Source: an uncultured Dehalococcoidales bacterium (GTDB lineage Bacteria; Chloroflexota; Dehalococcoidia; Dehalococcoidales; JAUVZE01). Taken from it: a stretch of DNA of 58,808 bases. The translations under genes were made by a program, and so were the position numbers. Each line of letters opens with the position of its first letter. Within the stretch, counting starts at the first letter, position 1. Below the pieces are notes generated by a model, which saw nothing but the letters and a program-made list of their open reading frames with translations, made no database searches and was not told where the DNA came from. Of the stretch, positions 47,644-48,934 are shown piece after piece. The stretch covers positions 1 through 58,808 of the forward strand of contig CAZNEL010000001.1 of assembly GCA_964572285.1 (NCBI GenBank), written 5' to 3'.

Positions 47644-47668
47644 AAAAGTCTTAAGGTATTTATAGTTA

Positions 47669-47677
47669 TGTTATAAT
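47669..47677 (+). promoter_or_regulatory. Extended -10 TGTTATAAT within the dyad TGTTATAATTAACA (47669-47682) upstream of the DUF5343-like/HEPN cassette
   Basis: TG at 47669-47670 and TATAAT at 47672-47677. Lies 45 nt upstream of ATG 47722. Confidence 0.5.
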
Positions 47678-47721
47678 TAACATAAGTGCCACAAGTAAAT
47701 CTTTGAGATAAGGGGGTAAAA

Positions 47722-48330
47722 ATGGCTAAATTTGAATTTCCATATACACCAAGCCCTAAAAACGTGCCTGAGCTACTCGATAAAATACAGACGATTGGTA
47801 TGCCAAAAGATAAGGTTAACCTTAGCTATCTTAAGTCGCTCGGCTTTAAGAGTAGTTATGACACTTATCTGCCACCTGTCCTCAAATTCCTAGGCTTTGT
47901 GAATGCTGATGGTTCACCTACTAGTATATGGCAACAGTATGGCGTCAAAAAGCAGGCGCGTTCTGTAATGGCCTCGGCAATCAAGAACGCCTATTCTGTG
48001 CTATTTCATACGTATGAGGATGCTCACGCACAGACGAATACTGCATTGGTGGATTTCTTTAAAGCACGAACGGGGGCTTCTGATAAGGATGCAGGTCTCT
48101 TGGTTCAAACATTCCAAAATTTATGTACCTTAGCAGATTTCGAGGCTGTTCCTGCGGAAGCCGTAGTTTCTGAGCCTCTTACATCTCCAAAAGAAGAAGC
48201 TGCTCGTATTCCCCCAGTAACGCCTGGGCTTACAGTTAATATTAATGTTCAACTAACTCTACCTGCTACTGATGACGAAACTGTTTATGATAAGCTGTTT
48301 GCTTCTTTGAAGAGGAACTTGTTATCTTGA
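47722..48330 (+). CDS. DUF5343-like protein
   Basis: 202 aa with GGGGG SD. The N-terminal ~130 aa ([53 protein letters not shown]) matches my recollection of DUF5343. A Pro/Ala/Glu-rich linker and a ~40-aa tail follow. Confidence 0.5.
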   Translation: [202 protein letters not shown]

Positions 48331-48342
48331 GGTAGTGTATAA

Positions 48343-48867
48343 GTGATTAAGAACCTATTATCGAGAGCCCGAGTTTTCGAGCGAGAGGCTCATGTTATAC
48401 TTTCTTACCACGAAACTTCACTGTCCCGTGTTGTTTTGCTTGATGAAACTTATAAAGAGTTGGGGCAGCTCAGCTTACGCCAAGACGAGCTCTTTCGGCA
48501 AGCTCTTAGTTGCTTGGAGGGTCGGTTCTTCAGAGCCGCAATTGTAATGGCTTGGGCAGGATTCATGGACTATTTGGAAGAAAAGATAGAGTCAGATAAC
48601 TTTAATGAACTTCGAAAAGTGAGGGCGAATTGGCCTATCAAGACTATAGAAGACCTTAGAGAACATGTTCCTGAATATCAAGTAGTCGAGGCTTGCAAAG
48701 ACATAGGATTGTGCTCAAGAAACGAGGTGAGAGCGCTTCTGGGTCTCCTCAATAAAAGGAACGAGTGTGCCCATCCCAGCAACTATTTCCCTGATTTGAA
48801 TGAGTGTCTTGGTTTCATTTCCGAGGTACTTAACCGGATTGAAATGCTACAACATAAGACCCTTTAG
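48343..48867 (+). CDS. Predicted HEPN-domain protein (Rx4H motif)
   Basis: 174 aa, GTG start 12 nt after the previous stop. Helical-looking sequence with LLNKRNECAHPS (R-N-E-C-A-H = Rx4H) near the C-terminus. Confidence 0.55.
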   Translation: MIKNLLSRARVFEREAHVILSYHETSLSRVVLLDETYKELGQLSLRQDELFRQALSCLEGRFFRAAIVMAWAGFMDYLEEKIESDNFNELRKVRANWPIKTIEDLREHVPEYQVVEACKDIGLCSRNEVRALLGLLNKRNECAHPSNYFPDLNECLGFISEVLNRIEMLQHKTL

Positions 48868-48934
48868 CCGAGACATAGTTCTAATCCGCTCTACTATCCT
48901 TCCTTTCAACCTCCACCCCTAAACCACCGCCGCC

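Follow-up and report, generated by a model that had tools for sequence, protein, structure and literature searches.

A near-obligate two-gene cassette pairing a modular DUF5343 protein with a predicted HEPN RNase, a candidate defence module

A stretch of 58,808 nucleotides (nt) from an uncultured Dehalococcoidales bacterium (contig CAZNEL010000001.1), hereafter called the window, was analysed for a cassette of two co-oriented genes, A and B, that lies between an mtaB-like gene and argF. Gene A encodes a DUF5343 protein and gene B a predicted ribonuclease (RNase) of the HEPN fold. HEPN RNases are a main effector class in toxin–antitoxin, abortive-infection and CRISPR-accessory systems, and how they are silenced and released is for most of them an open question. 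We propose, at a probability of roughly 0.55, that the cassette is a two-subunit, toxin–antitoxin-like conflict module, most probably an accessory of abortive infection or defence. The description as a sensor or regulatory subunit plus an RNase effector fits better than that of a simple labile antitoxin. An earlier reading of the DNA letters, referred to below as the original prediction, had put forward a candidate uncharacterised module of a sensor or antitoxin and an RNase effector; this proposal is supported, and no result fully overturns it. The two genes and the parts of their products are the following.

47722..48330, + strand: gene A, ATG start, 202 amino acids (aa); proposed partner, sensor or regulator subunit
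47722..48147, + strand: N-terminal domain (N-domain) of A, residues 1–142, DUF5343, the exchangeable part; 88–96 in the predicted local distance difference test (pLDDT) of the AlphaFold2 (AF2) model
48148..48216, + strand: linker of A, approximately residues 143–165, rich in Pro, Ala and Glu, disordered
48217..48327, + strand: C-terminal tail of A, residues 166–202 (37 aa), a strand plus an amphipathic helix, conserved
48343..48867, + strand: gene B, GTG start, 174 aa; predicted HEPN RNase effector, PF27235 'AF_1680'
48343..48468, + strand: N-terminal extension (N-extension) of B, residues 1–42, helices 2–24 and 28–38, outside the four-helix core
48469..48864, + strand: HEPN core of B, residues 43–174, from the AF2 model and Foldseek
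48757..48774, + strand: Rx4H motif of B, R139-N-E-C-A-H144 (RNECAH), predicted catalytic site

The two open reading frames (ORFs) have exactly the coordinates and lengths first reported, with a 12-nt spacer (48331–48342) between them. A scan anchored on B, with one genome per species, gave 66 loci (L numbers denote loci and P numbers proteins of our surveys). A DUF5343 gene of the A type stands directly upstream of B, on the same strand and at a distance of ~10–40 nt, in ~60 of the 66. The six exceptions comprise four loci cut by a contig end and two with degenerate B fragments, which leaves ~60 of 62 among the loci with upstream DNA; some relatives show an 8-nt overlap of A and B. The reverse test used the tail of A alone as query against metagenomes and returned 80 loci, 76 of them with room downstream. 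B is the next gene after the tail-bearing gene in 73 of these 76, and the other three tail-bearing genes look decayed, being followed by an insertion-sequence-type transposase (L140), a PIN-like ORF (L150) or unrelated sequence (L120). No third conserved gene emerged from an all-against-all clustering of the neighbours. The A–B adjacency is near-obligate, the cassette is a real and self-contained two-gene module, and the question whether the pair is conserved as neighbours elsewhere is answered in the affirmative. The carriers include, among Bacteria, Chloroflexota, Acidobacteriota, Planctomycetota, Desulfobacterota-like metagenome-assembled genomes, Patescibacteria, Mycobacterium, Mycobacteroides, Moorella and Occultella, and among Archaea, Methanoregula, Methanoperedens, Archaeoglobi, Thermoplasmata and DPANN; the distribution over the two domains is patchy.

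Homologues of B number 534 at E ≤ 1e-3, and all 120 of those listed are tagged PF27235; the identical 174-aa product at L067/L068 carries the tag PF27235:AF_1680. PF27235 is a recent addition to Pfam that takes its name from nothing more than a locus tag. The AF2 model of B is all-α, with a pLDDT of 89.5 and a predicted template-modelling score of 0.78. The core helices are h1 (residues 45–59), h2 (63–83), h3 (126–143) and h4 (152–170), and a helical insert (88–120) is placed between h2 and h3. The HEPN definition comprises a four-helix topology, a motif at the end of h3, a polar residue after the Arg and an acidic residue of helix 2 near the motif (PMC3710099). B fits it both in topology and in the position of the Rx4H motif, with RNECAH at the end of h3, entering the loop 144–151 that leads to h4, and N140 is the polar residue behind the Arg. 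The segment LLNKRNECAHPS spans residues 135–146 and contains R139-x4-H144, the R-x4-H spacing that had drawn attention to this protein. In 46 homologues, R139, N140, E141, C142 and H144 are invariant, as are D76 and E79 in helix 2.

The best Foldseek matches of the B model in the PDB are almost exclusively HEPN proteins. They include Csm6, 2hsb (AF_0298), SsR10, 2q00, 1wwp and 1jog, together with the HepT toxins 7ae6, 7ae8, 6m6u and 5yep; for 2hsb the probability is 1.0 and the template-modelling score, normalised to the target, is 0.66. Furthermore, four of six diverse B homologues, as well as a distant plasmid relative, weakly match positions 11–121 of the PD-T7-3 model (E = 1e-4 to 9e-3), and the B of the window itself gave no match to that model. 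Scans of B against NCBIfam and PADLOC (the latter at E ≤ 1) gave no match, and a weak one was obtained with phrog_27609 (1.4e-4). A sequence link of B to solved structures or to known HEPN families was considered and rejected, none of the matches being significant. The assignment of B to HEPN is made on the predicted structure, the position of the motif and the weak but recurrent PD-T7-3 matches, not on a significant profile match. On the strength of the model and the motif, B is very probably a HEPN RNase capable of catalysis, and the HEPN fold anticipated for the second protein is what AF2 and Foldseek return. The N-extension may partner the tail of A, serve dimerisation, or both.

Protein A had been called DUF5343-like; it is a true DUF5343 protein. 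Its residues 7–142 match positions 1–137 of 140 of Pfam PF17278 with E = 3.1e-36 and 125.2 bits, against a gathering cut-off of 27. A also matches the PADLOC model PDLC04589, labelled PDC-M34A, at 1.2e-42 over nearly its whole length (residues 5–200 on positions 4–207 of 208), and a second PDC-M34A model, PDLC04588, at 2.5e-26. The homologues of A number 85, and the architecture was read from an alignment of 45 of them together with the AF2 model (mean pLDDT 81), both of which display the linker and the short tail described earlier. In the model, the N-domain consists of helices 14–25, 34–39 and 45–57, a hairpin 60–66 and then a helical bundle 68–135. The order of the elements 14–66 follows that of a winged helix-turn-helix, and, judged by this order of secondary structure, the start of the N-domain may be a winged-helix-like binding domain. 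Its conserved residues are mostly hydrophobic, Gly or Pro and form no catalytic-looking constellation, and no nucleotidyltransferase model matched A in Pfam, PADLOC and further profile scans. A profile search of A against the PDB gave no match. The linker falls below a pLDDT of 50 over residues 145–171 and varies among homologues in length and sequence. The tail, in turn, is presumably a docking element for B.

The N-domain of A is exchangeable. Proteins P0201–P0204 share with A only the linker and the tail (57% identity) and carry an unrelated N-domain without a Pfam match, and their genes are found 5′ of a B gene 85–87% identical to that of the window and 3′ of an mtaB gene 69–72% identical. 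When DUF5343 and this alternative N-domain were compared with hhalign, only the linker and the tail aligned, and homology between the two domains was rejected. Exchange is also seen within DUF5343. Among 85 non-redundant cassettes, there are pairs in which B is 87–94% and the tail 86–97% identical, yet the DUF5343 domains are only 31–42% identical; the recombination breakpoint lies near residue 130–143 of A.

The tail is tied to the effector. Tail type 1 is followed by AF_1680. Tail type 2 (..NIEIHI..D..KI..IFxNMKxYL) is followed by 'B2', a family of 172–174 aa without a Pfam match, and tail type 3 (..HIDIQIHIDS....QIDQIFASMAxHLYGR) by a HEPN protein of the Ymh family (PF09509, motif GIRNPRAH). 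The alternative N-domain family has 53 members and bears three kinds of tail. Type 1 and type 2 tails each occur on both N-domains with the same effector partners, and five of the six combinations of N-domain with tail and effector were observed. Tail type, not N-domain, predicts the downstream effector. The sister cassette with Ymh is built from the alternative N-domain, a linker and a type-3 tail, followed 7–8 nt on by a HEPN protein of 175–181 aa in which GIRNPRAH stands at R140–H145, nearly the same position as the motif of B.

Two further observations concern these families. B2, exemplified by L159:5767-6291, L160:5587-6111 and L162:3602-4120 and always found after type-2 tails, shares a conserved segment, EKG[ND]LSAHNP, that may be a degenerate HEPN-like motif of the Kx5H kind. 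The alternative N-domain is also fused, tail-less, to an unrelated C-terminal domain starting CFYI[ST]PIGxxGSxxRxHSDLF (L157:5001-6301, apparently split over two ORFs, and P0381, P0383-P0389 and P0396).

What does the tail do? Single-chain fusions of the two proteins are informative in this respect. A profile search of 1.84 billion representatives yielded 970 B relatives, and at least 11 cluster representatives are single-chain DUF5343–HEPN fusions. Type-1 fusions join the DUF5343 N-domain through a charged linker to the HEPN core, starting from B residue ~41–53, and have neither the tail of A nor the N-extension of B (P0251, P0259, P0263, P0275, P0326, P0349, P0350 and P0353, and also the genome loci L061 and L062). 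In type-2 fusions (P0258, P0272, P0327 and P0302), the DUF5343 N-domain directly precedes a full-length B, and linker and tail are gone. Other N-domains are fused in P0261, with DUF7669, and in P0347. The fusions are products of deletion plus fusion, not of stop-codon read-through. Since they exist, the N-domain works in cis with the RNase, and this suggests that the tail, probably together with the N-extension of B, is the non-covalent equivalent of the covalent link. Docking of the tail onto the N-extension is proposed because the two are lost jointly in fusions and because tail and B covary weakly. B residues 34 and 37 feature in the strongest covarying pairs, and shuffled pairings score lower, with phylogeny uncontrolled and a modest enrichment in the N-extension.

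In-place exchange can be followed at one chromosomal site. A cassette of the A–B family lies directly 3′ of mtaB (69–85% identical) in at least 13 contigs of related sediment organisms; the loci are the window, L069, L070, L072-L085 and L162, and L074 is syntenic for queA-mtaB-A-B-orf118. At least four variants occupy this flank: DUF5343 variant a with tail 1 and AF_1680 (window), DUF5343 variant b with tail 1 and AF_1680 (L072, L075 and L076), the alternative N-domain with tail 1 and AF_1680 (L069 and L070), and DUF5343 with tail 2 and B2 (L162). The signals of the cassette and the block shared among these relatives are listed here.

47644..47721, + strand: intergenic promoter and 5′ leader, 82–88% conserved over five variants that differ in the A N-domain and the effector
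47669..47677, + strand: extended −10 element TGTTATAAT, read directly, invariant in the five aligned variants
47666–47673 and 47678–47685, no strand: perfect 8-bp inverted repeat TTATGTTA / TAACATAA, straddling the −10
47710..47717, + strand: Shine-Dalgarno sequence of gene A, AAGGGGGT, read directly, kept in the aligned variants
48329..48333, + strand: Shine-Dalgarno sequence of gene B, GAGGT, read directly, overlapping the stop codon of A
48149..48929, + strand: mosaic block of A linker, tail, B and 62 nt downstream, delimited by blastn and sliding identity

The DNA of the mosaic block is 88% identical to L069 and L072, the non-coding flank included. In the same relatives the promoter and leader are 82–88% and mtaB ~70% identical, and the segment for the A N-domain is unrelated or 37–57% identical. 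As read from these alignments, the mtaB 3′ flank is a variable hotspot with in-place cassette exchange at a fixed promoter.

The extended −10 at 47669–47677, to which the original prediction had pointed, is present. A simple sigma-70 consensus scan did not call the TGTTATAAT promoter, because its −35 is poor. The block GTATTTAnAGTTnTGTTATAATTnACATAAG is identical, in the alignment, in five divergent cassette variants occupying the one site, and so the evidence for a promoter is stronger than a consensus match would give. As the Shine-Dalgarno sequence of B overlaps the stop codon of A, translational coupling of the two genes is plausible and indeed probable. The inverted repeat at 47666..47685 has p about 0.01 against shuffles and keeps 6–7 of its 8 positions in close relatives; it is a possible, weakly supported operator. 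Palindromes upstream of A are not enriched in general (4 of 59 loci reach p ≤ 0.05, about chance level), and a conserved palindromic operator was therefore rejected, the repeat being also only partly kept in relatives. Given that the promoter block is the same under three different N-domains, an operator specific to the N-domain is unlikely.

Where do such cassettes reside? Six of them lie between pglX and brxHI/pglZ, on the same strand, in type 1 bacteriophage exclusion (BREX) systems (L034, from Thermodesulfobacteriota; L041, from Moorella naiadis; L110, L111, L125 and L131), and the cassette of L050 adjoins a type IIG restriction–modification (RM) enzyme. Sister cassettes are found in defence loci as well. 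At L156:2181-10506, in a textbook case of embedding, a type I RM operon on one strand reads hsdM-hsdS-[alternative-N/tail-3]-[Ymh HEPN]-ORF-PIN-hsdR, and at L165 the sister cassette adjoins a CAP12-PCTIR TIR gene. Published work notes that HEPN genes standing alone often serve as auxiliary effectors of BREX/Pgl and RM loci (PMC3710099, PMC12839542).

A defence role with A as sensor or regulator is favoured because of the embedding in BREX and RM loci, the fast-shuffling N-domain, the patchy cross-domain spread and the fusions. The 'guilt-by-embedding' candidacy of A, and non-coding flanks that are 88% identical where mtaB is 70%, also speak for a role in conflict. We propose the following course of events. 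The pair would be transcribed from its own conserved extended −10 promoter. B would be a small, metal-independent RNase of the predicted HEPN fold, with R139, N140 and H144 as its active site, and by analogy with other HEPN enzymes it may work as a dimer. A would be the non-enzymatic partner that docks onto its cognate effector via the tail, probably involving the N-extension of B, and its N-domain would control or direct the RNase, keeping B inactive until a trigger is perceived. Such a trigger might be, for example, an invader nucleic acid or protein, or the breakdown of a BREX or RM system nearby. B, once freed, would then cleave cellular RNA, either tRNA or mRNA, and growth would stop.

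Several results weigh against this proposal. For protein B, no Foldseek E-value is below 0.19, a Pfam library without the PF27235 model gave no family at E ≤ 1 with the DUF86/HEPN models included, a PDB profile search returned no HEPN match, and hhalign of AF_1680 against Ymh reached a probability of 0.4%; no significant profile match of B to an established HEPN family was found. For protein A, Foldseek found nothing significant in the PDB, its best matches being of low probability (the winged-helix/ratchet region of DEAH helicases, and NsrR). The support for tail-to-N-extension docking, drawn from sequence comparison, is limited to the joint loss and the weak covariation, and type-2 fusions keep the N-extension without a tail. 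The neighbourhoods, moreover, are mostly of the ordinary kind. The 280 neighbours within ±3 genes at 57 loci are mixed housekeeping genes with no recurrent family, and most of these loci are not in defence islands; the clear defence loci, among them the six BREX loci and L050, are a minority. No B relative was found among the IMG/VR viral contigs or in 50,697 phage genomes, and plasmids contain only remote ones (~26% identity); phage or plasmid carriage was accordingly rejected. A fold search of BFVD gave nothing significant. The literature searched contains no mention of DUF5343, PF17278, PF27235 or PDC-M34 and no experimental report.

The remote plasmid relatives merit a short description. 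A distant relative of the B core (KKRNMAAHPS, E = 1.3e-14 against the B profile) occurs at L153:3144-4510 on the Ochrobactrum plasmid pLM19O1 and at L154, unannotated, on the Ralstonia solanacearum megaplasmid. It has its own N-terminal domain of ~110 aa and is preceded, with a one-base overlap, by a gene for 204 aa that lies outside DUF5343 and has no tail. On pLM19O1 its surroundings hold a transposase, a Phd/VapC pair and an integrase.

A more far-reaching version of the sensor–effector proposal can be offered tentatively, as a possibility that we rate well below the basic one. The cassettes may belong to a combinatorial immune architecture not described before, in which interchangeable sensor N-domains (DUF5343 variants, the unnamed domain of ~190 aa, DUF7669 and others) are joined by a linker to an 'address tag' tail that comes in three or more types, one for each small effector family, and are re-paired by recombination at the domain boundary across genomes and at the mtaB hotspot. 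The N-domain would here be the receptor of the trigger, possibly a nucleic acid, with cleavage of tRNA as the output; the proximity of mtaB, queA and class I tRNA synthetase genes would point to this substrate.

A classical type II toxin–antitoxin pair is the next explanation to be considered, and we regard it as rather unlikely, though it is the most serious competitor. According to it, a labile A would autorepress through its N-domain and block the active site of B with its tail, proteolysis would free the toxin, and no phage would be sensed. The layout of the cassette is just that of a type II system, with small adjacent co-oriented genes, the partner upstream and the toxin 12 nt downstream (overlapping in relatives), and a promoter of its own. 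The make-up of A from a folded N-domain, a disordered linker and a brief C-terminal element specific to the toxin, the mix-and-match of N-domains with tail/effector pairs, the 8-bp inverted repeat over the −10 and the scattering of most copies among housekeeping genes would all be expected of such a pair. However, the tail-less single-chain fusions require that the N-domain acts on the RNase in cis, and the promoter block does not vary among five cassettes that carry three different N-domains, for which reasons the simple labile-antitoxin interpretation is strained. It also sits poorly with upstream palindromes at chance level, with an A that is larger than B and has the N-domain as its fastest-changing part, and with the copies inside BREX or RM loci.

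It is improbable that B is a non-catalytic HEPN-like helical domain and that the pair forms a regulatory or structural complex devoid of RNase activity. No HEPN sequence profile detects B, the Foldseek E-values are weak, the fusion P0353 has lost the His (motif RRRDDCVNP), and non-catalytic HEPN domains do exist, as with those attached to nucleotidyltransferases. Yet non-catalytic HEPN domains have typically lost the Rx4H motif (PMC3710099), and in B the motif is kept, with R, N and H invariant in 46 members at the canonical site and D76 and E79 invariant too; in addition, the effector of the sister cassettes, which belongs to a recognised HEPN family, has the motif GIRNPRAH.

Least probable of all is a housekeeping function in tRNA-linked RNA processing, with B as a dedicated RNase and A as its RNA-binding specificity subunit tied to mtaB, queA and class I aminoacyl-tRNA synthetases: at least 13 related contigs have mtaB directly upstream, L010 and the window clade have queA next to the cassette, 6 of 66 loci hold a class I synthetase gene no more than 6 kb away against a control median of 0 (range 0–4, cross-hits among the Ile, Val and Leu enzymes being possible), and many HEPN RNases cut tRNA anticodon loops, but the cassette is patchy in Bacteria and Archaea with no neighbour conserved overall, mtaB is less conserved than the cassette DNA with its non-coding flanks, some copies lie inside BREX and RM loci, and B2 replaces the effector at the mtaB flank of L162, which marks the flank as a variable hotspot and not a fixed pathway.

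The synthetase genes near the cassette are noted here in their own right. They were seen in the genome loci L001, L013, L015, L030, L061 and L062, which come from different phyla, and distance and strand vary; 47 window genes served as the control. The copy at L030:2223-5273 is isoleucyl-tRNA synthetase-like (tRNA-synt_1 + Anticodon_1 + DUF5915) and is the only one scanned against Pfam.

The immediate surroundings of the cassette agree with its placement, in the original prediction, between mtaB and a convergent block on the argF side.

45248..46288, − strand: queA, upstream flank, beyond the mtaB-like gene
46384..47643, + strand: mtaB-like radical S-adenosylmethionine (SAM) gene, left anchor, outside the module; UPF0004 + Radical_SAM in the syntenic L069
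48935..49291, − strand: convergent ORF of 118 aa, right flank, outside the module; 72% identical and syntenic in L074
49479..50207, − strand: convergent ORF without family assignment, between the cassette and argF
50220..51158, − strand: argF, downstream of the convergent ORFs

A family search with the 118-aa ORF at 48935–49291 gave no assignment, only a sub-threshold DUF5808 match. The lower G+C content that had been counted by hand holds for the comparison with mtaB (42.7% in the cassette, 50.2% in mtaB) but does not make the cassette an outlier; the mean of the window in 600-nt windows is 45.8% with a standard deviation (SD) of 3.0%, and the cassette lies at the 15th percentile. Low G+C as a sign of foreign origin was rejected, the cassette being only ~1 SD under the window mean. 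Between 47300 and 49300, the promoter region included, Rfam gave no match at E ≤ 1, and on this basis the idea that the cassette holds an RNA gene or an RNA antitoxin was rejected. No intrinsic terminator was found 3′ of B, and the search for flanking direct repeats or a target-site duplication gave just chance-level matches of 11–16 nt.

Elsewhere in the window, positions 51647–51909 (+ strand) encode the bacterial large signal-recognition-particle RNA (Rfam RF01854, 178.7 bits, full-length model), which explains the G+C-rich, ORF-less stretch between a DUF4342 gene and rsmA/ksgA. The region 44178–45281, between truB and queA, is untidy, with overlapping ORFs on both strands. It contains a 133-aa ORF (44628–45029, − strand) with a SAM-dependent methyltransferase-like start (LEAGCGTG) after which the sense is lost, followed by a 77-aa ORF (45048–45281), and is possibly a decayed gene or the remnant of a mobile element.

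The cassette gives a testable role to DUF5343 and AF_1680, which are present from Mycobacterium and Moorella to Methanoregula, Archaeoglobi and DPANN, and it accounts for the embedded-gene candidate PDC-M34A. If the proposal is confirmed, the 37-residue tail and its effector would make a compact and portable protein–protein adaptor, and if the tail rule is confirmed, the natural N-domain swaps behind one promoter would constitute a ready-made experiment on the evolution of specificity. Should the cassette be an ordinary toxin–antitoxin pair, it would still represent a new antitoxin fold and a new family of HEPN toxins.

Among described systems, the closest trace is PDC-M34. According to Payne et al. 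(bioRxiv 10.1101/2024.01.29.577857), the PDC candidates came from a 'guilt-by-embedding' screen for genes that lie inside BREX, DISARM or type I RM loci, and PDC-M34 is a two-gene cassette, CAS_00130 (FAM_01148>>FAM_01657), with 97 occurrences. A matches both PDC-M34A models over its full length, tail included, the gene order is the same as in A–B, and the origin by embedding agrees with the BREX-embedded cassettes found independently here. The difference lies in the second gene. No PDC-M34B model of PADLOC v2.0.0 matched B (E ≤ 1) or six diverse homologues (E ≤ 10), and hence the second gene of PDC-M34 may be Ymh, B2 or another effector, or the model may be missing. PADLOC places A but not B. 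PDC-M34 is a computational label only, without function or mechanism. The pair had been thought impossible to place among described HEPN systems; it is indeed uncharacterised, but A matches a listed candidate and B belongs to PF27235.

PD-T7-3, or DARNA, is the only defence-protein model matched in sequence by members of the B family, on its HEPN region 11–121. DARNA is a single chain of 456 aa that forms a dodecamer and acts by abortive infection; its HEPN motif R117x4H122 cuts tRNA anticodon loops once the C-terminal, Pds5-like sensor domain binds single-stranded DNA (bioRxiv 10.64898/2026.02.22.705581). The coupling of an Rx4H HEPN RNase to a distinct module, which in DARNA senses nucleic acid, is the point of likeness. 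In the cassette, by contrast, the non-catalytic module stands on its own as a protein or is fused N-terminally, has another fold and bears a docking tail.

HepT–MntA likewise places a small Rx4H HEPN toxin beside a cognate controlling partner, and HepT proteins are among the Foldseek matches of B. The partner in that system is a minimal nucleotidyltransferase that AMPylates the toxin. A, in contrast, has no nucleotidyltransferase domain, and B escapes the DUF86/HEPN Pfam models and has an extra N-terminal helical extension.

In the HEPN proteins that act as back-up suicide effectors of RM and BREX systems (PrrC, RloC, the pEK499_p136 family and standalone ones), the HEPN gene is nested in pglX...pglZ or hsdS...hsdR as in some cassettes here, and the same logic has been proposed, namely that the RNase is freed once the primary system has failed. 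ABC ATPases are the fusion partners in PrrC and RloC, whereas here the HEPN protein goes with a separate partner of the DUF5343 or the alternative type that bears a docking tail; most A–B copies, moreover, stand alone outside RM or BREX loci. The cassettes with Ymh (PF09509, Hypoth_Ymh) have the same architecture and motif position with another tail subtype, and show no sequence homology to AF_1680 that hhalign could detect.

Type II antitoxins are known for the mix-and-match, among families, of DNA-binding N-domains with toxin-specific C-terminal segments. The cassettes resemble them in combining N-domains with tail/effector pairs and in the disordered linker and short C-terminal binding element of A. 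They differ in that the promoter does not co-vary with the N-domain, that tail-less covalent fusions are common, and that DUF5343 is not among the recognised DNA-binding folds of antitoxins. Toxin and effector modules with HEPN proteins are as such well known, and the prior traces of this one are the PDC-M34A candidate label for A and the locus-tag-named family for B. What appears to be new is the combination of a swappable N-domain, a linker, an effector-specific tail with at least three small effector families, equivalent single-chain fusions and in-place exchange at a fixed promoter.

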